The notes: generated by a model from the sequence alone, not told the origin. Shown: positions 2,680-48,652, counted from the first letter of the stretch. The stretch is DNA of 64,000 bases from Shigella phage SSG23 (PQ351811), one strand, 5' to 3'. Numbers and translations are program-made.

Positions 2680-2697
2680 CTGTGTGAGGATTATATT

Positions 2698-3018
2698 ATG
2701 AGCAAACTGTTTGAAACTCCGCGCGAAATTCTGATTGATAAACTGAAAGAGCGTGGTTTTAAGATCAAAGATGCAACCAAATACAGCAGAATTGATGAAA
2801 TTAAGTTGCATTCTCTTGATGAACTGGTAGAATATGTTGCGGCAGTGGCTGATCCGCAGTTTGATGTTATTGTAGGTGACGTTGAATATCTCGATAATGT
2901 ATATTCATTCTTCACTTATGGTAAAATTGTGTCTGTGAAAATTTCATTCTGTGAAAATGTGGAGGTACTTGCTAGTGAACCAGAAGAACCAACTAACAAC
3001 GGTCCTACGGCAGCGTAA
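2698..3018 (+). CDS. hypothetical protein
   Basis: Track ORF preceded by GAGGATTATATTATG initiation cassette. Confidence 0.55.
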   Translation: MSKLFETPREILIDKLKERGFKIKDATKYSRIDEIKLHSLDELVEYVAAVADPQFDVIVGDVEYLDNVYSFFTYGKIVSVKISFCENVEVLASEPEEPTNNGPTAA

Positions 3019-6613: not shown

Positions 6614-6808
6614 ATGCAAGTTTATACCAATAGCAATAAAGGACAAGATATTACGCCCGGAAAGATGTATGATTTTACCCCGGCACGAGACGACGAAAAT
6701 CCACCGACAATCGGTTACATCAAAGATGATATAGGTTATCGTATTACGATACTTCTTGATGGTGGATGTTCTCATCTTCGCGGTGATAAATGGGAGTTAG
6801 TACCATGA
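6614..6808 (+). CDS. small protein, tandem paralog 1
   Basis: Track ORF; shares GK(M/L)Y.FTP...GYIKDD.GY motif with next ORF. Confidence 0.5.
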   Translation: MQVYTNSNKGQDITPGKMYDFTPARDDENPPTIGYIKDDIGYRITILLDGGCSHLRGDKWELVP

Positions 6809-7050
6809 TGTATGTTATGACACCTTATAGTAGTAGATCTTACATCACCCCAAATAAACTGTATAAGTTTACGCCAGATGAAAGAATGTCTACCTACGGT
6901 TACATCAAAGATGATAAAGGATACGAACTTTTTATTTCTCTGAAAAGTTGTGCATACCTTGATGACCGTCCGTGGACACTGATCGAAAAACCAAAACAAC
7001 CTGAGAATAAAGGTCTTTGGAATGTGCTAAAAAAATTCTTGAAAAAGTAG
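6805..7050 (+). CDS. small protein, tandem paralog 2
   Basis: Track ORF 6790..7050, ATG 6805 after GGGAG SD; paralog of 6614 ORF. Confidence 0.5.
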   Translation: MMYVMTPYSSRSYITPNKLYKFTPDERMSTYGYIKDDKGYELFISLKSCAYLDDRPWTLIEKPKQPENKGLWNVLKKFLKK

Positions 7051-7079
7051 TTGACAGCATGAAACGGGGGTAGTAATAT
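7051..7079 (+). promoter_or_regulatory. sigma70-like early promoter (PeSL-like cassette)
   Basis: TTGACA-17-TAATAT with inverted repeat GGGGGTA/TACCCCC; conserved CATCGAAAC leader. Confidence 0.65.
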
Positions 7080-7110: not shown

Positions 7111-7449
7111 ATGAGTGTTAAAGAAGTGTTTGTTTATACCGACTATGACGGGTGCGCCTATATCACCGCCGGAAAACTTTACCGATGTGAAATTATTCAT
7201 GGTACATTAGGTCGAATTATGTGCGATCCGGTTACAAAATTGTGGAAAAGCAATCCTAGTGAGCGAGAAACTCTTATTAACCTAGATCCAGACGGTTGTT
7301 CACATTTGGACTATAGAAAATGGCATATCGTGACACATGATGCTTATGGTATTCATCTTGCTACTAAAGAATTAACTATAGAGAAATTCAAGTTTAAAGA
7401 AATCCCGTTTGTATACTGGCTTCGCAATTTGTTCAAGAAAGGAGAATAA
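7111..7449 (+). CDS. small protein, tandem paralog 3
   Basis: Track ORF after promoter; GKLY....DPDGCSHLDYRKW resembles paralogs 1 and 2. Confidence 0.55.
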   Translation: MSVKEVFVYTDYDGCAYITAGKLYRCEIIHGTLGRIMCDPVTKLWKSNPSERETLINLDPDGCSHLDYRKWHIVTHDAYGIHLATKELTIEKFKFKEIPFVYWLRNLFKKGE

Positions 7450-21247: not shown

Positions 21248-21529
21248 ATGGTAGAAATTTTTGGTTTTGAAGGTTACAACTGTAAGTATTGCCAGAATGC
21301 AAAGCGCCTTTGTGAATCGCGTAAGATCCCTTACATCTACATTCCGGTTAATGATGGTGTAGACGAAAACGGTCGTCCGGTAAAGATTGATTCTATCATT
21401 GCCGACATTCAGGATCGCGCAGGGGTAGAAGTTATTGCCACCATGCCGCAGATTTTCTATAATGGTGATTATATAGGTGGTTTTGATGAGTTCAGATCCT
21501 TTGTAGTCAAAAACAAGATTAATGGTTAA
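21248..21529 (+). CDS. nrdC: glutaredoxin/thioredoxin (NrdC-like)
   Basis: Active-site C..C (CKYCQNA) in glutaredoxin-sized 93-aa protein; GAGGTATAATATG start; between dam and gene 49. Confidence 0.7.
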   Translation: MVEIFGFEGYNCKYCQNAKRLCESRKIPYIYIPVNDGVDENGRPVKIDSIIADIQDRAGVEVIATMPQIFYNGDYIGGFDEFRSFVVKNKING

Positions 21530-21553
21530 ATACCTTCTTTGGAGGGTGAATTT

Positions 21554-22027
21554 ATGTTACTGACTGCTAAGAGTGCTAAAGAGTACAAACAAGAACTATT
21601 CGAAAAACAAGGGGGCATTTGCCCCCTTTGTCAATTACCACTTTTTGAGGATATGAGCAAAAACCATCTTGACCATGATCATGATCTAGATGGGAAAGGG
21701 CAAGGCCGCGTAAGGGGATTGCTTCATTCGTGTTGCAACCGCCTAGAAGGATCGTTGACCGGAGACTTTAAACGGTTTGGTGTTGGTGCTTTAGGTGCTG
21801 ATTTCGTTGTTTGGGCTACAAACTATGTTAATTACATCAAAGGAGACTACACCAACAATCATTTACATCCTCAATATGCTGTTGATAAAGTAAAACGATT
21901 TTCACGCTTGACACGCGCGGAGATGGTTGCTATTATGGACGCAGAAGGTTTCGATTACTGCGACGCTGATACACGAGAAGAAATCACGAAGAAGTATAAG
22001 AAACAATTCATACAAAGATTAAGATAG
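21554..22027 (+). CDS. 49: recombination endonuclease VII (Holliday junction resolvase)
   Basis: MLLTAKSAKEY...CPLCQ..NHLDHDHDL..GKGQGRVRGLLHSCCN matches remembered T4 gp49 zinc/H-N-H region. Confidence 0.85.
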   Translation: MLLTAKSAKEYKQELFEKQGGICPLCQLPLFEDMSKNHLDHDHDLDGKGQGRVRGLLHSCCNRLEGSLTGDFKRFGVGALGADFVVWATNYVNYIKGDYTNNHLHPQYAVDKVKRFSRLTRAEMVAIMDAEGFDYCDADTREEITKKYKKQFIQRLR

Positions 22028-22030
22028 TAG

Positions 22031-22059
22031 TTGACAATAAGAAATGGGAGTAGTAAAAT
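22031..22059 (+). promoter_or_regulatory. sigma70-like early promoter (PeSL-like cassette)
   Basis: TTGACA-17-TAAAAT with inverted repeat GGGAGTA/TACTCCC. Confidence 0.65.
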
Positions 22060-22090
22060 ACTCCCATCTAATCAAGAAGGAGAATCAACA

Positions 22091-22351
22091 ATGCGTAAGA
22101 TGTTTAAAGCTGGTGTGGCCTATGTTTTTAAATCTGAGCAAGCACATAAAGACTTCTTAGATGATGAATACGAAGGGGTGAAAGATACCTACGAAGTCAT
22201 CAAGAATGGGTTTACTGTTCTTAAAGTGTCACCTGTTGGTTATGTAAGTGAAATAGCGGTTGATGGGAAAACATACACCGCTAAAGACTTTGACCCGCGT
22301 TGGGAATTTATGCTGCTTCCGTGTGAGCGCATTCTGTTCCGTGCTGTTTAA
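22091..22351 (+). CDS. paralog family B member (single N-module)
   Basis: Track ORF 22031..22351, ATG 22091 after AAGGAGAATCAACAATG; GFTVLKV..DGKTYTAKDF module. Confidence 0.55.
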   Translation: MRKMFKAGVAYVFKSEQAHKDFLDDEYEGVKDTYEVIKNGFTVLKVSPVGYVSEIAVDGKTYTAKDFDPRWEFMLLPCERILFRAV

Positions 22352-22377
22352 TTAGTGAAATGATAGAGGATTATATT

Positions 22378-22938
22378 ATGGTACAGAAAACGTATAAATT
22401 GTATCCGGCTAAGTCTTCAAATGATGCTGTTTTTGAACGAGGTCGTTATTACACTTTCCGTAGTGCAGAAACAGCCGCAGAATTTATCAAACGATGTCCG
22501 CAACATAATAAGTTCTTGTATGACGTGCTTTGTAACGGCTTTAAAGTTCTCACTGTTGATGCGATGGGGCGTGTGTATCTGGTAGAAACTCATGGGTATG
22601 AAGGTGCATCTGTTCTGATTGCTGCAAACGAGCGCAAATACTTTAAACGCATCACTAAAAAGCAGTTTGAAGAAATGAAACCAGTTAAGAAAGAAGAATC
22701 TCTGGAAGATCTGATTAACTTGTTTGGTAAAGTTCGCTCTATCTCCTTTGCGATTGAAGATGACATTACCGACAATAAAATCTTTGTCAAGAACGCGGAA
22801 GACCTGAAAGAGTTCCTTATTGAAAATAGATCTCGACTGGAAACCTTTCTTGAAAGTGAAATTATTCGACATGATACCTACGCTAAATTCAGCGCCGAGA
22901 AAGTGGAAGAACTGAAAGAGATTAAAAAGTCACTTTAA
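22378..22938 (+). CDS. paralog family B member
   Basis: ATG after GAGGATTATATTATG; GFKVLTVD..NERKYFKRI.. plus helical C-module LEDLINLFG...LKEFL. Confidence 0.55.
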   Translation: MVQKTYKLYPAKSSNDAVFERGRYYTFRSAETAAEFIKRCPQHNKFLYDVLCNGFKVLTVDAMGRVYLVETHGYEGASVLIAANERKYFKRITKKQFEEMKPVKKEESLEDLINLFGKVRSISFAIEDDITDNKIFVKNAEDLKEFLIENRSRLETFLESEIIRHDTYAKFSAEKVEELKEIKKSL

Positions 22939-22941
22939 CGC

Positions 22942-22970
22942 TTGACATGATGAAACGGGAGTAGTAAGAT
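22942..22970 (+). promoter_or_regulatory. sigma70-like early promoter (PeSL-like cassette)
   Basis: TTGACA-17-TAAGAT with GGGAGTA/TACTCCC inverted repeat. Confidence 0.65.
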
Positions 22971-23001
22971 ACTCCCATCTAAACAACGAGAGGATTATAT
23001 T

Positions 23002-24180
23002 ATGGCTAAATTCTTTGAAGGTCATTACTATGCATTCCGTGAAGGCGGTAAAGATGAGTTTCTAGACTTTTCTCGCTATTCAATTATTCTGACCGATGCT
23101 TCGCGCCGTGGTCATATTCGAGTTGCTGAAATCGTAGAAAAGGGCTTTAAAGTATTAGAAAAAGATGACCACGGTCATGTTATTACTATTGAAGCTGGAG
23201 ATGTAGTTTATTCCGCTGAGGATATCGTTTATTATTGGTCTACTATGATTATGCACAATGAGCGCAAATACTTTAAACGTATCTCAAAAGAGGCATACGA
23301 AGCGATGAACAAGAAAGAGGATGCAATGCCGACTTACTTTGAAAAAGGTAAATGTTATTCGTTTACCCCAGAAGGTTTGCAAGAATTTAAGCGATTCTGG
23401 GGAGAGCATGACCCAGAACACAAAGAAGCCATGAAACTTGCTGATTTTGTCGAATATGGCTTTTTGGTTGAAGAAGAATTGCACGGATCAGCTACCATGA
23501 TCACCGCGAAAGGTGAAACCGTTAAGGCAGATCGTTTTTGTGATCAATGGGCTTGTGTGTTTGACGGTGGCGAATTTGAATACTTCGCGGAAATCACCAA
23601 CCATCAATTTCATTCTATGCAAGCGGAAGGTCAGCGATTTAAAGTAGGCGAACGCTACAAGCCAAATCAGCATAATTTGCCTCATTGGTTTAACACTGAA
23701 ACCGTATCCAGCCATGTTATTGAAATTGTTCAAAAGCTGGAACATGGATTTAAGGTAACTAAAGTAGATCCTTTCGGAAGTGTTGACGCGGTTGAAGTTG
23801 ATGGTGTAGAATATACTCCCAAATCTTTCGGGCTTTGCTGGTATCATCTGATCAGCAATGATGAACGTTATAACTTTGTTGAACTGCCATCTGAACCGGA
23901 AGAAGCACTAGAGGATCATGATCATCTATCTGAACTGGTTAAGCTGTTTGGTGATCTGCCGGATGGTGTAGGGGTGGCGGTAATGGGTGAAGGTGCGGTT
24001 ATCCGAAACCTGAAAGACTTTAAAAAGTTCTTGATTGACATGCTGCCTAAACTTGATGATAATCTCGATACAGATATTCAGAATCGCAAAGAAATTGTTA
24101 AAGAGACTGAAAAAGAGATCGAAGCGATTCGAGCAATTCGCCAGAAGGTGAAAGCAGTAAAGAAAAAAGTTCGTGCTTGA
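23002..24180 (+). CDS. paralog family B member (multi-module, 392 aa)
   Basis: Repeated GFKV..D..G.V...V.G..Y modules, NERKYFKRI, C-terminal LSELVKLFG..LKDFKKFL helical module. Confidence 0.6.
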   Translation: MAKFFEGHYYAFREGGKDEFLDFSRYSIILTDASRRGHIRVAEIVEKGFKVLEKDDHGHVITIEAGDVVYSAEDIVYYWSTMIMHNERKYFKRISKEAYEAMNKKEDAMPTYFEKGKCYSFTPEGLQEFKRFWGEHDPEHKEAMKLADFVEYGFLVEEELHGSATMITAKGETVKADRFCDQWACVFDGGEFEYFAEITNHQFHSMQAEGQRFKVGERYKPNQHNLPHWFNTETVSSHVIEIVQKLEHGFKVTKVDPFGSVDAVEVDGVEYTPKSFGLCWYHLISNDERYNFVELPSEPEEALEDHDHLSELVKLFGDLPDGVGVAVMGEGAVIRNLKDFKKFLIDMLPKLDDNLDTDIQNRKEIVKETEKEIEAIRAIRQKVKAVKKKVRA

Positions 24181-24205
24181 CATGCGAAGGGAGTATGCTA
24201 TAATA
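24177..24205 (+). promoter_or_regulatory. sigma70-consensus early promoter
   Basis: TTGACA (overlapping upstream stop), spacer with GGGAGTAT/ATACTCCC repeat, TATAAT. Confidence 0.7.
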
Positions 24206-24234
24206 CTCCCACTTAACAACGAGAGGATTATATT

Positions 24235-24729
24235 ATGTGGGTACAAGATGTTTGGTATACTGTAACTAAAGAAAACCTTGACGCATTCAGCGACCAATCT
24301 TGCGCTAATAGTTCAATTGCTGGTATCCTTACTGATGTGTTTGGTGGTGTTGATAAAATTCGTTTTAAAGTTGTTGTTGGTTCGATGGGGGGTGTAAAAG
24401 ACCTATACACCGAAGATAAAGACCTTGATCTTGAACTTCGTCTTCGTATTGATAATGCAAGTCTAGGTTATTGGTTTGAAGATAACGAATATGAATACTT
24501 CACCCCAGCAATTAAAGTTTTTGCGACTAAACTGGAAGCTGTACTAAATATCCGACCAATTAATGTTGACGGTTATATTATCAAAAATATTCAGGATTGG
24601 GAGTTGTATCTAGATCAGATTATCCGAAATAGTAAGCAGGAAGCCGCTAATAAGAAGCGACAAGAGATTAAACAGCTTAAGGCTGAACTGGAAGCTAAAG
24701 AAAAAGAATTAGCAGAACTGGTAAAATAA
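24235..24729 (+). CDS. hypothetical protein, paralog-family-like
   Basis: ATG after GAGGATTATATTATG; WFEDNEYEYF motif; coiled-coil C-terminus. Confidence 0.55.
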   Translation: MWVQDVWYTVTKENLDAFSDQSCANSSIAGILTDVFGGVDKIRFKVVVGSMGGVKDLYTEDKDLDLELRLRIDNASLGYWFEDNEYEYFTPAIKVFATKLEAVLNIRPINVDGYIIKNIQDWELYLDQIIRNSKQEAANKKRQEIKQLKAELEAKEKELAELVK

Positions 24730-24737
24730 CTATCAAC

Positions 24738-24760
24738 GAGCGGGAGAAATCCCGCTTTTT
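24738..24760 (+). terminator. intrinsic terminator
   Basis: AGCGGGA-GAAA-TCCCGCT followed by TTTTTC. Confidence 0.65.
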
Positions 24761-24773
24761 CATAGGTGATACA

Positions 24774-26636
24774 ATGGAAAAACTAATCAAAGACATTACA
24801 GAGATCGCAACGGGTAAAGAAAACGAAGTAAGCAAAGAGAACGCGAACAAAGACGCGCGAACATTCCCGACACGTCGAGATCTGATTGCTGGTGCTGTGT
24901 CTAAACAGATTGCTAAAACCGTGTTACCTGAGCACATCTATAAAGCGCATGTAGACGGTGATATTCATTATCATGATATGGATTATGCACCCGCTATGCC
25001 GTTTACTAACTGCTGTCTTGTTAATCTCAAAGACATGTTAGAGAATGGTTTTAAATTGGGTAGCGCACAAATCGAAAGTCCTAAATCGATCGGCGTTGCT
25101 TGTGCTGTAACCGCTCAAATTATCGCACAGGTGGCAAGTCATCAATATGGCGGGACCACAATTGCAAACATCGATCAGGTTTTAGCGCCATACGTTGAGA
25201 AAACATATCATAAACACCTTGCTGATGCAGAAACCTACGGAATCAAAGCTGATACTCTCTATGCACAAGAGAAGACAGAAAAAGAAACGCTAGACGGATA
25301 TCAGGCGTTGGAATATGAGATCAACACTTTGTTCTCTACCAACGGTCAAACACCTTTTGTGACTTTAACCTTTGGTATGGGTACTAGCTGGGAAGAAAAA
25401 CTGATTCAGAAAGCGATCCTGAAAGTTCGAACTAAAGGTTTAGGTAAAGATGGTATAACTCCGGTGTTTCCTAAGCTGGTGATGTTCTTAGAAGAAGGAT
25501 TAAACCTTAAACCGGAAGATCCGAACTACGACATTAAGCAACTTGCATTGGAATGTTCTAGTAAGCGTCTTTACCCTGATTATATCTCTGCGAAGAATAA
25601 CCGTAGTATCACTGGATCTAGTGTTCCGGTTAGCCCGATGGGTTGTCGTAGCTTCCTGGGTGTGTGGCATAATGAGAAAGGCGAAGAAGTATTAGATGGA
25701 CGTAATAACTTAGGTGTTGTGACTCTGAATCTTCCGCGTATTGCACTTATTGCCGCGCGTCGTGCTGGTAAAGCGTCTGTAATGCGCAGAATTGAGCTAT
25801 TCGAACAAGAGCTAGCTAATCGTCTGCCTATTTGCTTTGATGCGCTCATGAGTCGCGTAGACGCTTTAAAAGGGGCTAAAGCCAATGTTGCTCCTGTACT
25901 GTATACCGAAGGTGCATTTTTCCGTATTCATCAAAACGATGAAATTTTGGAAGTGCTGAAAGATGGTCGCGCTAGTATCTCTCTTGGGTATATTGGTTTA
26001 CATGAAGTGTTGAGCGTCCTGTTTGGTGTTCATCCGTTTGATTCGGAAGATGCGCAGCGATACGGTAAACATATTCTTAAAATCCTGCGTCATTATACTG
26101 AAAAATGGAAGGACGAAACCGGACTTGGGTTTAGTCTTTACGGCACGCCAGCCGAGAGCCTTTGTTATCGATTTAATCGACTGGACCGAGAGCAATTTGG
26201 TATTGTTAAGGGTGCTACCGATAAAGACTGGTACACCAACTCATTCCACCTTGACGTAGACCGGAAAGTTACACCGTTTGAGAAAATCGACTTTGAGAAA
26301 GACTATCACTGGCTGGCGTCTGGTGGTATGATCTCTTATGTTGAGTTCCCGGACATGAAAAACAACATTAAAGGGCTTGAAACTGTAGTAGACTATGCAA
26401 TGGATAAATTGCACTACTTCGGTGTTAATACTCCTTCTGATGTATGTCATGTATGCGGATCTACTAAGGAAATGAGAGCGACCGAGTCTGGTTTTGTTTG
26501 CCCTGATTGCGGCAATGACAATCTGGAAAAGATGAATGTTATCCGTCGCGTTAGTGGATATCTTGGATCTGTTGACCTGCGTCCATTCAACCACGGGAAA
26601 CACTCCGAGATGGTAAACCGCGTTAAACACATGTAA
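24774..26636 (+). CDS. nrdD: anaerobic ribonucleoside-triphosphate reductase
   Basis: 620 aa; C-terminal Zn site CHVCGS..CPDCG and glycyl-radical motif RVSGYLG. Confidence 0.92.
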   Translation: MEKLIKDITEIATGKENEVSKENANKDARTFPTRRDLIAGAVSKQIAKTVLPEHIYKAHVDGDIHYHDMDYAPAMPFTNCCLVNLKDMLENGFKLGSAQIESPKSIGVACAVTAQIIAQVASHQYGGTTIANIDQVLAPYVEKTYHKHLADAETYGIKADTLYAQEKTEKETLDGYQALEYEINTLFSTNGQTPFVTLTFGMGTSWEEKLIQKAILKVRTKGLGKDGITPVFPKLVMFLEEGLNLKPEDPNYDIKQLALECSSKRLYPDYISAKNNRSITGSSVPVSPMGCRSFLGVWHNEKGEEVLDGRNNLGVVTLNLPRIALIAARRAGKASVMRRIELFEQELANRLPICFDALMSRVDALKGAKANVAPVLYTEGAFFRIHQNDEILEVLKDGRASISLGYIGLHEVLSVLFGVHPFDSEDAQRYGKHILKILRHYTEKWKDETGLGFSLYGTPAESLCYRFNRLDREQFGIVKGATDKDWYTNSFHLDVDRKVTPFEKIDFEKDYHWLASGGMISYVEFPDMKNNIKGLETVVDYAMDKLHYFGVNTPSDVCHVCGSTKEMRATESGFVCPDCGNDNLEKMNVIRRVSGYLGSVDLRPFNHGKHSEMVNRVKHM

Positions 26637-28570: not shown

Positions 28571-29098
28571 ATGGAATGGGAAGTTGGTAAAACTTACAAG
28601 ATTGAATGCGAAGCGTCGAAAGCCGAACTGACTAAATTTTCGTCGTCTATTAACAGATGTATTGTTGACTTGTTGGCTGGTCGCCCGTTTAGGGTAGAAG
28701 ACCTTGACGATGATGGTGATGTTAGAGAAATTACTATTATTGGTAGTAATTTCGACTCTATGACGTTAAAAGAATCCCCTATTGGTTGTTCTGGTGTGTG
28801 GTTTTGGTCGGGTGAGCGTCGTTTCTTTACCGAAGTTACTATTGAACCTAAGATTCCAGAATCGGAAGAAAAAGAAGAAGACCTAACTTTAGAACGTCTG
28901 GGTCTGCTTATGGAAGCCTACGACATTCAGTTGATCGATAAGACAGGATTGCACAATAGCATTGCTAAAATCACTACCCTAGAAGGTATTAAGAGCGTAC
29001 TGGATGGTATGCCTAGCCGGATCGGTGCTATCCGCGAATACAAGCAAACGCGCGACCGTATGATCCAATTAGAATCACGTATCAAAAATGAGAGATGA
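28571..29098 (+). CDS. paralog family A member 1
   Basis: MEWEVGKTYK...RPFRV..WFWSGERRFFTEV module plus helical C-module; GAGGTG SD. Confidence 0.6.
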   Translation: MEWEVGKTYKIECEASKAELTKFSSSINRCIVDLLAGRPFRVEDLDDDGDVREITIIGSNFDSMTLKESPIGCSGVWFWSGERRFFTEVTIEPKIPESEEKEEDLTLERLGLLMEAYDIQLIDKTGLHNSIAKITTLEGIKSVLDGMPSRIGAIREYKQTRDRMIQLESRIKNER

Positions 29099-29102
29099 TA
29101 AT

Positions 29103-29588
29103 ATGAAATGGGAAGAAGGTAAGACCTATAAGTTGGGTGGAGAATACGAAAAGAGTATTTTGCGTGATTGTTGGCGTTACGAACGAAGACCTAATATTGA
29201 TGGTATGTTTACATATCTCGATAAACCATTTATTGTTGCTACGGTAGACCGTTGGGGTAATGTACGTTCAATCTATAATCACGAAGGGGATTATATTAGT
29301 TCTATCGATGTTGGTGATAATATATGGTTTTCCGATGGCGACCGAGCGTGCTTCAAAGAAGTTTTATTGCCTGGTCATGAGCATGATCTAATTGATCTTC
29401 TCAAATTGGCGATGGATAATTATAAAATTCGCTTTGAATGCAAATCACATGCGGCTATCGGTGCTAATGCATTGCGTCATATCTCCAGTTTTGAAGAGTT
29501 GAAAGATTTTCTTGACAAAATGCCGGAAAGAGTGCAAGCTATACAGGAAGCAGAGAAAGCATTAAACGAACTTGATAAAATCGGTTAA
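29103..29588 (+). CDS. paralog family A member 2
   Basis: MKWEEGKTYK...KPFIV..WFSDGDRACFKEV; C-module FLDKMPERVQAIQEAE. Confidence 0.6.
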   Translation: MKWEEGKTYKLGGEYEKSILRDCWRYERRPNIDGMFTYLDKPFIVATVDRWGNVRSIYNHEGDYISSIDVGDNIWFSDGDRACFKEVLLPGHEHDLIDLLKLAMDNYKIRFECKSHAAIGANALRHISSFEELKDFLDKMPERVQAIQEAEKALNELDKIG

Positions 29589-29600
29589 GGGGAATATATT

Positions 29601-30425
29601 ATGAAATGGGAAATTGGTAAAACTTACACTTGGAAAGATGAAAAAGCTAAAACTGAGTTTATTACTAACGGTGAAGGTGTTCTTTCTCCACTTAACAGCG
29701 ATATTAGTGCAGCTATTGGTGACAAGCCATTTACCATCATCGAGATCGAGGGTAATGGTTGGATTGATGTAATAGAACTCGATGGGGTTGAGCATACGGC
29801 GAAAACTGCTACAGGAAAAGACATTTGGACTGCAACATATTTCTTTAGTCCATTCGATAGAAAATTCTTTCGTGAAGTTGAAGAAGTTCCCCAGAAATGG
29901 GAGGTTGGTAAAACTTATACTTGGAAAGATGCGAATGCTATGACCGACTTCTGTCATTATGCTGAAAACGTATCTAATCTTAATTATGTTATTGCACGAG
30001 CAATAAATTATAGACCTTTTACTGTTAAAAATGTTCGTCCATGTGGGCAAATTGATGTAATTGAAATTGATGGTAAAGACCATACTCTAATGAGTGCAAC
30101 CGAAGATAGCGACCATAAAGGAACTAGCTGGTTTATTGATTCTGATAGAAAATTCTTTCAAGAAGTAGAAGAATTGGAAGTTATAACCACTGATTCTAAG
30201 ATCGTTGGGCAATTGAAGCGTCTGTTTAGTAGTCGTTATGGCCTAACAATGGTTAAATTTGGCGAAGCAAATGAAGGTAAAACCTTTGAACGTTTCGATG
30301 ATTTCATCACAGCACTTGACAAGATGGACGAAATCATGCAAGATCGACAGAAGATTAAAGACCTTCAAGAAGACATTAACCGTCGTGAAGTTGAATTTTT
30401 GATTGGTAAAGAGCGAGGATGGTAA
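29601..30425 (+). CDS. paralog family A member 3 (internally duplicated N-module)
   Basis: Two copies of WE.GKTYTWKD...RPFT...IDVIE.DG...FDRKFF.EVEE (residues 1-95 and 97-190) plus C-module. Confidence 0.65.
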   Translation: MKWEIGKTYTWKDEKAKTEFITNGEGVLSPLNSDISAAIGDKPFTIIEIEGNGWIDVIELDGVEHTAKTATGKDIWTATYFFSPFDRKFFREVEEVPQKWEVGKTYTWKDANAMTDFCHYAENVSNLNYVIARAINYRPFTVKNVRPCGQIDVIEIDGKDHTLMSATEDSDHKGTSWFIDSDRKFFQEVEELEVITTDSKIVGQLKRLFSSRYGLTMVKFGEANEGKTFERFDDFITALDKMDEIMQDRQKIKDLQEDINRREVEFLIGKERGW

Positions 30426-30426
30426 T

Positions 30427-30909
30427 ATGTTTGTTGCTGGCGTGACCTATCAGTGGAAAGATAAGAAAACGAGAGAAGATTTTGCAAACTTTAGCGTTGC
30501 AAATGATGCAATAGCAGAGTTTATCGGCGACCGTCCATTTAAAGTTATTGCATTTGATCACCATGCATCGGATGTGGATTATGTTTCTGTGATTGAAATT
30601 GATGGCAAGGTGTACACCTGCTGCAATGTTGATGATGTACGGGAATACGCGCACAACTGGTTTTTGCAATCAGAAGAACGTCATTTTAAAGTGGTATCGG
30701 CAGAACTGACCACTGATGCAATGTTGGAACAATTTTTTAACAACTACGAAGTTTCTGTACGTCGATATGGTGAAGAGGAAGTATTTAAAATTGATGACTA
30801 TAATCAGTTTAAACGAGTATTCGCCACTAAGATCCAACGTGATATTGAACGCGAGAAGCGCATCAAGGAACTGGAAGAAGAACTGGAAAGATTAAAGGCT
30901 GAGAAATGA
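30427..30909 (+). CDS. paralog family A member 4
   Basis: Track ORF 30403..30909, ATG 30427 after GAGCGAGGATGG; VTYQWKDKK...RPFKV..VIEIDG..WF; coiled-coil C-terminus. Confidence 0.55.
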   Translation: MFVAGVTYQWKDKKTREDFANFSVANDAIAEFIGDRPFKVIAFDHHASDVDYVSVIEIDGKVYTCCNVDDVREYAHNWFLQSEERHFKVVSAELTTDAMLEQFFNNYEVSVRRYGEEEVFKIDDYNQFKRVFATKIQRDIEREKRIKELEEELERLKAEK

Positions 30910-48016: not shown

Positions 48017-48652
48017 ATGATCGCTAATGCTTTACCGCCAAAATGGATCGTAAGTCGTTTTTATACTCTCAAGGAAGGTAACGCACCTGATGGTCGTCCG
48101 ATCCGAGATCTGTTTCTGGAGATGACTACAGCCGAAGCACAGTTTTATAATGATCTGACAGACGATAAGCCATTTCTCGTAAATTCGGTGGACCTTGATG
48201 GTAATGTTACGTCAATTATCGCACATGGTGGGGAAGTGAAAAATATTACTTCCTTGCGTGATCACGGTTGGGAAATTGCTTGTGTATTTCCTGCGGATGT
48301 ACGCGGATTCTTTGATGAGGTATCTGATATTAAAGTAAATGCACTGGAACCATATGACGAGAACCCACCACTGAAAGAAGAAAAAGAGTTGACACCGGAA
48401 GATGTAGGCAGTATACTACAACCCGACCTGTTTAAAAAGATTAGCGGTTTATGGACTATTACCCTGTATCCAACCGCATTAGGTTTAGAATTGGGTATGC
48501 CAACTTATTCTGATATTGATAATTGGACTAAGCACATTGATAAAGATGTTGAAAAACAGCGAAACAATGCTAAACTACAGTTGAAAGAGAAACGCAAAGA
48601 TCTTGAACGACAACTGAAAGAAACAAAACATTTGCTTTCTACGTTCGCTTGA
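48017..48652 (+). CDS. hypothetical protein with paralog-family-A-like module
   Basis: KPFLVNSVDLDGNV...GWEIACVFPADVRGFFDEV resembles modules at 28571-30909; coiled-coil C-terminus. Confidence 0.55.
   Translation: MIANALPPKWIVSRFYTLKEGNAPDGRPIRDLFLEMTTAEAQFYNDLTDDKPFLVNSVDLDGNVTSIIAHGGEVKNITSLRDHGWEIACVFPADVRGFFDEVSDIKVNALEPYDENPPLKEEKELTPEDVGSILQPDLFKKISGLWTITLYPTALGLELGMPTYSDIDNWTKHIDKDVEKQRNNAKLQLKEKRKDLERQLKETKHLLSTFA

Follow-up and report, generated by a model that had tools for sequence, protein, structure and literature searches.

Predicted early genes of the GoF family and their PeSL cassettes in the gene 49-nrdD interval of a Krischvirus

Genes and signals between gene 49 and nrdD

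The DNA considered here (the window) is a stretch of 64,000 nucleotides from Shigella phage SSG23 (PQ351811). Over the 3.7 kb that was compared, it shows 100% identity to Shigella phage SFHK24 and 96% to RB49, and the genome is of the Krischvirus (RB49-like) type. An earlier note on this DNA had placed four consecutive open reading frames, designated here g1 to g4, between the gene for endonuclease VII (gene 49) on one side and nrdD on the other, and all four are found there (Table 1). T4 has zero genes between 49 and nrdD, which suggests that this interval is an insertion-prone spot. The gap of 26 nt between g1 and g2 contains no promoter-like site; consequently, g2 is presumably co-transcribed with g1. 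The intrinsic terminator downstream of g4 (fold -17 kcal/mol, z -5.2) is also the annotated terminator in the GEC-3S record.

Table 1. Coordinates of the cluster features and of further family members, counted from the first nucleotide of the window
Feature	Position	Strand	Description
PeSL 1	22031..22067	+	-35 TTGACA 22031-22036, 17-nt spacer, -10 TAAAAT 22054-22059
g1	22091..22351	+	86 aa; single GoF-type N-module (predicted SH3-like barrel), without C-module
g2	22378..22938	+	186 aa; N-module, C-module, helical tail
PeSL 2	22942..22976	+	-35 TTGACA 22942-22947, 17-nt spacer, -10 TAAGAT 22965-22970
g3	23002..24180	+	392 aa; three tandem N-modules, then C-module and basic K-rich tail, putatively helical
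PeSL 3	24177..24210	+	-35 TTGACA 24177-24182, 16-nt spacer, -10 TATAAT 24199-24204
g4	24235..24729	+	164 aa; strongly diverged; N-module, C-module, K/E-rich helical tail
Intrinsic terminator	24738..24762	+	GC-rich hairpin, then TTTTT; cluster end, before nrdD
A1	28571..29098	+	Family A; N-module, C-module, helical tail
A2	29088..29588	+	Family A; start in the SFHK24 record 29088, module start 29103
A4	30427..30909	+	Family A member
Ninth family member	48017..48652	+	211 aa; directly 3' of the gene 41 helicase

Promoter-hairpin elements

It had been proposed that each of the four genes is preceded by its own promoter and inverted repeat. Such an element is present ahead of g1 (22031), g3 (22942), and g4 (24177), but not ahead of g2; there are thus three cassettes rather than four, and g1 and g2 have one in common. 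The three promoters match the sigma70 consensus at 11/12, 10/12, and 12/12 positions, the last with a TG extension in addition, and the stems (7-9 bp, -12 to -14 kcal/mol, z -2.6 to -3.5) span the -10 element; the exact promoter/repeat pattern was recovered in 0/100 shuffles. In PeSL 1, whose site is an annotated promoter in GEC-3S, a 9-bp hairpin (ATGGGAGTA / TACTCCCAT, 22044-22067) holds the -10 within its loop and 3' arm, with an RNA fold of -13.8 kcal/mol (z -3.1). PeSL 2 has the hairpin GGGAGTA / TACTCCC at 22957-22976 (z -3.45), and PeSL 3, whose -35 box contains the g3 stop codon TGA (24178-24180), has GGGAGTAT / ATACTCCC at 24189-24210, a stem shifted by one base (centroid fold -13.3 kcal/mol).

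The PeSL (promoter-early stem-loop) has been described as a mobile regulatory cassette in RB49/phi1 (Arbiol et al. 2010, PMC2839356; Comeau et al. 2014, PMC4122927). In phi1/RB49, promoter and terminator activity of a PeSL have been demonstrated experimentally, 51-52 PeSLs are counted per genome, and nrdD is named as PeSL-associated (Arbiol et al. 2010, PMC2839356). The three sites here are very probably among those counted in RB49/phi1; the locus itself is not discussed in PMC2839356. The intergenic PeSL layout (stop codon, AT-rich stretch, Shine-Dalgarno, orphan gene start) can be read from the sequence. Since the PeSL is a genome-wide element, with 19 strict sites in this genome and the GGGAGTA/TACTCCC stem also at three promoters outside the cluster, the suggestion that the cassette is a trait of this gene family is not upheld. 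In addition, there is no PeSL between the genes of family A (see below). No U-tract follows the stems here, so these hairpins are not canonical intrinsic terminators; the published terminator activity is that of another PeSL. In an Rfam scan, the sole match within 21800-24900 was to Xist and due to chance (E 0.77). The RBS string GAGGATTATATTATG, found upstream of g2, g3, and g4, was considered as a mark of co-duplication and rejected, since five of its exactly 8 occurrences in the window lie outside the cluster.

A family of modular proteins

Pairwise BLASTP among g1, g2, and g3 gives E values of 1e-5 to 3e-9, well above chance. For g4, a pairwise search against every member found no similarity, and its relationship is seen at the profile level only: its HMM matches have E values of 4e-6 and 2e-4, and hhalign of the g4 orthologues against the remaining members gives a probability of 95.3% and an E value of 2.3e-8 over 150 collinear columns. 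Thus, the claim that all four genes share modules holds by direct comparison for g1, g2, and g3, and for g4 in this more remote sense. The three N-modules that had been seen in g3 are confirmed, since a profile made without any g3 module matches g3 thrice (i-E 4.6e-9, 2.9e-5, and 1.1e-8; about aa 3-97, 113-202, and 213-300). It is the third of these to which g1 is closest. A C-terminal module is likewise common to the members, as had been noted, and the hhalign alignments (g4 versus the rest, and the present cluster, family B, versus family A) extend through it. Paralog identity is only about 20-35%. The N and C modules are collinear among members, and most C ends bear helical tails. By sequence comparison, g1 to g4 are paralogs built from N and C modules that can be reused.

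The genes had been regarded as a second family, distinct from the family A genes at 28571-30909, and a profile-profile comparison of the two had been proposed. This comparison (hhalign E 3.1e-9) indicates common ancestry; consequently, g1 to g4 and family A belong to one GoF/Frd.2 superfamily, and there is no "second" family. With the member that follows gene 41 (HMM 4.6e-10), the genome holds a total of nine genes and 12 barrels, arranged as two clusters flanking nrdD-nrdG plus this one gene, and it contains both two-barrel and three-barrel proteins. All but one of the nine proteins are acidic (pI 4.8-5.8, net charge -1 to -20); the exception, g2, is basic (pI 8.35).

In the AF2 model of g2, the N-module (pLDDT about 90) has the order b1-a-a-b2-b3-b4-b5, with strands at 24-27, 55-60, 66-70, 77-81, and 89-92, and the g4 model (pLDDT 72) shows the same order of secondary structure. 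In these models, the N-module (about 90 aa) forms a beta-barrel of five strands, SH3-like or "LSm-like" in type, and a helical hairpin separates the first strand from the second. Linkers of low pLDDT (g2 101-139, g4 96-106) give the arrangement of barrel, linker, and C-domain, except in g1, which has no C-domain. The overall architecture is one to three N-modules, an acidic linker, a helix-strand-strand-helix C-module, and, in g2, g3, and g4, a long K/E-rich helix. Coiled-coil ends rich in K/E had been described for g3 and g4; in the AF2 models, such tails are helical in g4 (119-163) and g2 (151-185), and the hydrophobic heptad spacing suggests that they could form coiled coils.

Relationship to T4 GoF and reach of the family

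A GoF/Frd.2/MotB.1 family with an "LSm-like fold" in T4-like phages has been published by Kim et al. 2025 (PMC12152347), who make no mention of tandem barrels, the common C-module, or the present expansion. A profile composed of the window modules and their orthologues, with GoF left out, matches T4 GoF over residues 4-91 (E 4.9e-13), and a profile of family B only still does so at 1.6e-5. In a six-frame scan of T4 outside positions 88-113 kb (late structural genes), the best three matches were, in order, GoF, Frd.2 (17.3-17.9 bits across the whole module, E 1.9e-4), and MotB.1 (10-11 bits across half a module only, E 0.029). Furthermore, the PHROG "goF" groups phrog_8944, 13003, and 2980 are matched, g3 matching phrog_8944 at 1e-209, and the database records of RB49, JSE, and phi1 already name g3 frd.2. 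g1 to g4 can be taken as diverged copies within the T4 GoF/Frd.2 family of small beta-barrels, and three of them stand behind PeSLs; both the family and the PeSLs had been described before, and most of the earlier observation is thereby real but already explained.

The family appears to be confined to T4-like phages. BFVD gave 53 matches at E<=1e-3, in which the organism-named rows are all phage proteins, mostly of T4-like phages, and the neighbours of g4 are family members. An exhaustive search of 1.84 billion representatives returned only 86 clusters at E<=1e-3, mostly phage-like proteins of 90-275 aa. Word-indexed searches with g3, g4, and the paralog profile found Krischvirus-type orthologues only, and full-length relatives of g3 occur in 58 Krischvirus records and nowhere else. 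None of the proteins matched a Pfam, NCBIfam, or PADLOC family above threshold, and a PDB sequence search with the family profile gave nothing below E 0.15. Long bacterial proteins (567-5873 aa) were considered as relatives and rejected: they show several short matches, confined to a stretch of the profile the size of a hairpin (positions about 42-86), and are treated as chance resemblance to a beta-hairpin motif rather than as kin. One bacterial match (P0205, 300 aa) has repeats that by eye resemble TolB/PD40 repeats.

Recombination at the cluster

Two related phages support the idea that the promoter/hairpin units are cassette boundaries. In phage KFS-EC, exactly g1+g2 are absent, and a chimeric PeSL stands at the junction; the crossover lies inside GGGAGTAGTAA, within the PeSL stem-loop, and PeSL 2 is one of the partners. 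In phage JK32, the barrel-coding part of g4 is only about 70% identical, and its flanks are identical. The divergent patch runs from 24241 to about 24620, beginning six bases into the ORF and directly after an identical PeSL 3, which is 100% conserved beside a g4 ORF of 72% identity. Such g4 alleles, which have 62-70% amino-acid identity among otherwise near-identical phages, differ mainly in the barrel-coding part, and the tail is conserved.

The further claim of modular expansion by duplication of whole cassettes is not supported: the paralogs are only about 20-35% identical, whereas their PeSLs are nearly identical. This disparity suggests that the PeSLs are alike through functional constraint or homogenisation and do not record co-duplication.

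A model for the locus

The units g1+g2, g3, and g4 are three predicted early-transcription cassettes in a hyperplastic region, and they encode members of the GoF/Frd.2/MotB.1 family. In the proposed model, host sigma70 RNA polymerase would fire the three promoters right after infection. Given the usual spacing after a -10, the transcript of each promoter would start 3' of its hairpin, so the hairpin would be present only in read-through RNA arriving from upstream, where it may attenuate transcription or cap the upstream message. Acting on upstream read-through only, the hairpins would insulate the units from one another, and the terminator before nrdD would end the cluster. The near-identical PeSLs would serve as substrates of phage homologous recombination, leading to deletion and swapping of cassettes, and reciprocal unequal exchange could also duplicate them. 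In the proteins, conservation is restricted to the hydrophobic core (of the residues in the 12 modules, none but Y, F, F, plus V and G, are invariant or close to it), so the barrel is likely to be a scaffold whose variable surfaces bind different partners. The helical tail would promote oligomerisation, and tandem barrels would add avidity. As a whole, this explanation, in which GoF-family early genes reside in PeSL cassettes, with the regulation, recombination, and early-factor role that it entails, is considered likely.

The proteins probably act as early factors that are abundant and dispensable. It is a nearly even proposition that, by analogy with T4 GoF genetics, they modulate mRNA fate or the machinery of transcription and decay. 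With somewhat less conviction, it can be supposed that they bind other host proteins, including targets of defence or takeover.

Alternative explanations

There is practically no chance that the paralogy is only a compositional or fortuitous likeness of unrelated small ORFs. The lack of pairwise similarity between g4 and the members and the low identities among the others would fit such an explanation. However, the profile matches are reciprocal and non-circular, the two hhalign comparisons (E 2.3e-8 and 3.1e-9) run over 124-150 collinear columns, and predicted secondary structure and structural neighbours agree; for g1 to g3 and family A, chance likeness is already refuted. Another proposal, judged very unlikely, is that the inverted repeat over the -10 is not an RNA/DNA hairpin but a DNA operator, bound by a dimeric regulator that shuts off early promoters. 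A perfect 7-9 bp palindrome centred on the -10 does occupy the classical place of a repressor operator, and the same half-sites are found at 6 promoters of this genome. [quoted passage not shown] These paired changes and unrelated stems suggest that what is conserved is structure rather than sequence. In addition, PeSL stem-loops have been reported to block sequencing polymerase and to terminate transcription in vivo (Arbiol et al., PMC2839356), and no candidate regulator is known.

With regard to function, the barrels may not bind RNA at all, but rather be acidic Tudor/SH3-like protein-binding adaptors or inhibitors, with targets such as RNA polymerase, Rho, a degradosome component, or a defence protein; diversification of the paralogs would then track different targets or host alleles. 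This is held to be a genuine possibility, though a somewhat doubtful one. Eight of the nine proteins, being acidic, are poor candidates for general RNA binding. The concentration of g4 allele differences in the barrel and the location of the genes among early accessory genes of a hyperplastic region also favour an adaptor, as does T4 genetics: goF mutations came out of selections for suppression of host rho alleles, and wild-type GoF and MotB.1 leave reporter RNA unaltered, the D25Y mutant alone altering it. Against protein binding, however, a GoF pull-down from uninfected E. coli recovered only GoF itself, GoF(D25Y) acts post-transcriptionally on RNA half-life, and no PADLOC or other family match ties the proteins to defence. 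A more far-reaching conjecture, which must be rated unlikely, is that the GoF-type barrel serves as a hypervariable scaffold for binding and that the nine genes and 12 barrels of the Krischvirus form a small arsenal, in which the tandem-barrel proteins oligomerise by their tails. Every paralog would have its own host factor to neutralise or retune, barrels would be swapped as units via PeSL-flanked cassettes or, as in the g4 alleles, conserved coding flanks, in an integron-like adaptation to the host, and basic g2 would natively stabilise mRNA, as T4 GoF does only after D25Y or G84R. In an alignment with T4 GoF, g2 carries R and K at these two suppressor sites. The idea that D25Y and G84R return GoF to a family consensus was rejected: both positions are variable across the family (position 25: R13, F10, E10, D9, Y7; position 84: E21, K19, R12, G7), with aromatic and basic residues frequent and no consensus.

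Significance

The locus joins two published threads, the GoF family and PeSL-mediated shuffling. Newly seen are the nine genes with 12 barrels, the collinear modules and tails, the KFS-EC crossover within a PeSL, and the JK32 g4 divergence; these two natural recombinants reveal which units are exchanged. Testable material is provided by natural multi-barrel and basic variants, the profile-only member g4, and the common C-module. For GoF-type function, Krischviruses offer more handles (nine paralogs, a dispensable g1+g2 cassette that is absent in KFS-EC, and divergent g4 alleles) than T4, with its three single-barrel genes and no wild-type phenotype. In addition, the annotation GoF-family can replace "hypothetical" for g1, g4, the four family A genes, and the gene after 41.

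Comparison with known systems

The barrel resembles that of Hfq and the Sm/LSm proteins in being small, bent, five-stranded, and antiparallel, and the stabilisation of an mRNA by the T4 GoF(D25Y) mutant recalls the Hfq/LSm theme. However, those proteins have an N-terminal helix before the sheet, which is missing here, where the helices come after strand 1 and ahead of strand 2, and the present family is mostly acidic. Given this topology and the absence of any LSM or Hfq match in the Pfam scan, assignment to Sm/LSm/Hfq proper was rejected. For GoF, AF3 gave no confident multimers (Kim et al. 2025, PMC12152347). The SH3-like domains of FeoA and DtxR-IdeR and the Tudor-like RNAP-interacting domains (UvrD/PcrA CTD, CarD N-domain) have no sequence similarity to the family and score at the level of a shared fold only; the DtxR type has metal ligands, whereas the barrel here lacks them.

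The T4 GoF family shares with the present proteins a homologous N-terminal five-stranded barrel, the layout of barrel, acidic linker, and small C-terminal domain, and FeoA and DtxR-type SH3-like barrels as structural neighbours. Its members are early genes of T4-like phages, and g1 to g4 would be early as well, to judge from their promoters. In contrast, T4 has three dispersed single-barrel genes versus nine genes and 12 barrels here, none of the nine occupies the T4 goF, motB.1, or frd.2 position, and T4 GoF and Frd.2 lack the long K/E-rich helical tails of the members modelled or inspected here. With the PeSLs of PMC2839356, the three elements share a sigma70-consensus promoter with a GC-rich stem-loop over the -10 (the commonest class), a position between a stop codon and the next Shine-Dalgarno upstream of orphan genes in the hyperplastic region, and use as a site of deletion or replacement between close relatives. 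The KFS-EC crossover lies inside the stem-loop, as reported for RB49 minicircles, and nothing essential differs at the three sites.

Genomic setting of the cluster

Genes g1 to g4 lie between those for endonuclease VII and NrdD (table), in a segment (21500-25200) that is 100% identical in Shigella phage SFHK24 and 96-99% identical in many other Krischvirus (RB49-like) phages. All four are annotated in existing records at the same coordinates that an earlier note had assigned to them; g2 and g3 are labeled "goF mRNA metabolism modulator" in several records, and g3 carries the gene name frd.2 in those of RB49, JSE, and phi1. In T4, gene 49 directly adjoins nrdD with no gene between, and thus the cluster sits at an insertion-prone spot. 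A further indel within the same hyperplastic region is seen in GEC-3S, where an HNH homing endonuclease gene absent from the window lies between dam and nrdC (record positions 1-747, upstream of nrdC).

Features of the window discussed in the text
Feature	Position	Strand	Basis or remark
Gene 49 endonuclease VII	21539-22027		annotation
PeSL 1	22031		before g1
g1	22091-22351	+	
g2	22378-22938	+	
PeSL 2	22942		before g3
g3	23002-24180	+	
PeSL 3	24177		before g4
g4	24235-24729	+	
Canonical terminator, end of g1-g4 cluster	24738-24762		fold; annotated in GEC-3S
NrdD	24774-26636		annotation
Family A (four genes)	within 28571-30909		between nrdG and nrdH
Ninth family gene (211 aa)	48017-48652	+	directly after gene 41 replicative helicase
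Partial barrel match	2680-3015	+	weak
Small adjacent ORFs	6790-7050; 7111-7449	+	split by PeSL at 7051
15-mer GAGGATTATATTATG	2686, 16400, 18857, 22366, 22990, 24223, 46228, 58522		all copies in 64 kb

A single family of GoF-type proteins

The earlier note held that g1-g4 form one family, the second in the window besides family A. For g1, g2, and g3, paralogy is established by pairwise comparison (BLASTP E 1e-5 to 3e-9; Smith-Waterman scores 11-14 SD above shuffles). The nearest relative of the g2 barrel (the N-terminal module) is the first barrel of g3, with which g2 also has in common the NERKYFKRI(S/T)K motif and the small C-terminal module; that of g1 is the third barrel of g3. The 392-residue g3 product does contain three barrels, as claimed, since a profile built without any g3 sequence matches it three times (i-E 4.6e-9, 2.9e-5, and 1.1e-8). 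Membership of g4 stands at the profile level only: E is 4e-6 against all other modules, 2e-4 against family A, T4 GoF, and the 48-kb member, and 2.3e-8 (95.3% probability) when 17 g4 orthologues are compared with 35 other members, in an alignment of 150 collinear columns across barrel, C-module, and tail. In addition, the AF2 model of g4 (pLDDT 72) has the element order of the rest of the family, and its nearest neighbors among viral models are family members of T4-like phages. The suggested profile-profile comparison with family A supports common ancestry (96.1% probability, E 3.1e-9, 124 columns over both modules); judged by these profiles, the two families are one superfamily, and the word "second" does not hold.

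T4 GoF has the same layout as the window proteins when read by eye and is matched at E 4.9e-13 by a profile lacking GoF. Among six-frame ORFs of T4 outside 88-113 kb, the three best matches to a GoF-free profile of this type are GoF (4e-12), Frd.2 (1.9e-4), and MotB.1 (0.029), exactly the trio grouped by Kim et al. 2025 (PMC12152347), who described an N-terminal barrel of five strands, joined by a flexible linker to C-terminal domains that vary, with FeoA and DtxR-type SH3-like domains as the closest structures. The g2 model agrees (barrel pLDDT ~90; order b1, two helices, b2-b5). Because no Hfq or Sm protein appears among the top 60 matches and there is no Pfam match, "SH3-like small barrel" is the safer description. 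The family comprises 86 clusters among 1.84 billion representatives; BFVD gives 53 matches at E<=1e-3, and wherever a row names the organism, the protein is from a phage, in most cases a T4-like phage of enterobacteria, Aeromonas, or Acinetobacter. As far as this evidence reaches, the family is small and confined to phages.

Expansion, C-module, and charge

Scanned in full, the SFHK24 genome has nine family genes with 12 barrels, all within the window: g1-g4, family A, and the gene after gene 41. No motB-to-goF block is present at the T4 position in SFHK24. The C-module is collinear (helix, two short strands, helix) and ends in L(K/E)(D/E)F..FL; long K/E-rich helices follow it in g2, g3, and g4. 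All of the nine proteins but one are acidic; the exception, g2, is basic (pI 8.35, barrel net charge +4). It has R and K aligned with D25 and G84 of T4 GoF, the two sites of rho-suppressor mutations, which remove negative or add positive charge. Both columns vary across the family, and so these residues are a lead rather than a rule. No description of the expansion, the collinear C-module, or the charge pattern was found in the literature.

In T4, the sole known effect of goF mutations is on gene 41 mRNA; the position of the ninth gene beside gene 41 may be coincidence. The weak partial match at 2680-3015 (to the central part of the barrel profile, E 0.0014 to 0.12, "..ERGFKIKDATKYSRIDEIKL..") may represent a highly diverged or truncated family gene or be due to chance. 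The two small ORFs share an N-terminal YIT..KLY... motif, the PeSL between them has a GGGGGTA/TACCCCC stem, and the ORFs are perhaps one more small pair of paralogs.

Promoter cassettes

A promoter with an inverted repeat had been noted before each gene; this is the case for g1, g3, and g4, with 11/12, 10/12, and 12/12 sigma70 consensus matches at the three sites, each with a 7-9 bp GC-rich stem that has the -10 box in loop and 3' arm. There is no such site at g2, which starts 26 nt after g1, and the cluster thus consists of three units: g1+g2, g3, and g4. The three sites fit the PeSL definition of Arbiol et al. 2010 (PMC2839356): sigma70-like early promoters with a stem-loop, in the commonest class overlapping the -10, that precede orphan genes in hyperplastic regions. 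These authors counted 51-52 per genome in RB49/phi1 and demonstrated promoter strength, terminator activity, and a role in indels and minicircles.

Under strict criteria, 19 promoter-plus-hairpin sites were counted in SFHK24, all on one (early) strand. The GGGAGTA/TACTCCC stem is found at six promoters, of which three lie outside the cluster, and consequently the cassette is not specific to the GoF-type family. Four more have GGGGGTA/TACCCCC, in which both arms are changed and pairing is kept, and besides stems over the -10 there is a class with a different stem between -35 and -10. Paired changes and a second stem class speak for a stem that acts through its structure and against an operator bound by a protein.

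Identical promoter-plus-hairpin copies lie at SFHK24 record positions 128597 and 128873. The g3 stop TGA (24178-24180) falls inside the -35 TTGACA (24177-24182) of PeSL 3, so that coding sequence and promoter overlap. The 15-mer GAGGATTATATTATG (Shine-Dalgarno, spacer, ATG) occurs exactly eight times, which suggests that some of the early genes use a strongly standardized translation-initiation region.

Natural recombinants

Cassettes do move, as two related phages show. In KFS-EC, gene 49 is followed directly by g3, and the junction is a chimeric PeSL (PeSL 1 to the left arm, PeSL 2 from the -10 on), which places the exchange within the shared GGGAGTAGTAA. JK32 matches the window at 96-100% identity on either side of a patch of ~60-70% identity. 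This patch begins at 24241, only six bases inside g4 and immediately past an identical PeSL 3, and extends to ~24620; the tail-coding end of g4 and the terminator are conserved again. The patch ends within the ORF before the coiled-coil-like tail, and its right exchange point is thus in conserved coding sequence, not at the terminator. Protein alleles of g4 are about 96%, 87%, 70%, and 62-66% identical; those of g3, at least 81%.

Thus, deletion and replacement have been observed, and cassette duplication by reciprocal unequal exchange can reasonably be inferred. No link can be drawn between the old paralogs (20-35% identical) and the PeSLs, which are nearly identical. The earlier note was largely right in its observations, apart from the promoter of g2 and the profile-level relation of g4, and partly right in reading them as modular expansion by cassette duplication: the cassettes do exist, but their duplication is unproven, and the promoter is of a generic type.

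Possible function and relation to known systems

Conservation is limited to the barrel core (Y, F, F, V, G); there is variation in surfaces, charge, copy number, and alleles alike. This pattern suggests that the barrel proteins would be a binding scaffold with diversified specificities, oligomerizing via the tail. In the literature, T4 knock-outs of family genes are silent, wild-type GoF and MotB.1 leave reporter RNA unchanged, GoF(D25Y) prolongs the half-life of RNA in an Hfq-independent manner, and purified GoF is monomer plus apparent dimer without partners. The putative partners have nearly an even chance of being RNA or the transcription/decay machinery; other host proteins are somewhat less probable.

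Both the gene family and the promoter cassette are already in print, and g3 is already named in reference genomes. The expansion, C-module, and charge data, together with the two recombinants, provide a useful if unsurprising new instance of known things.
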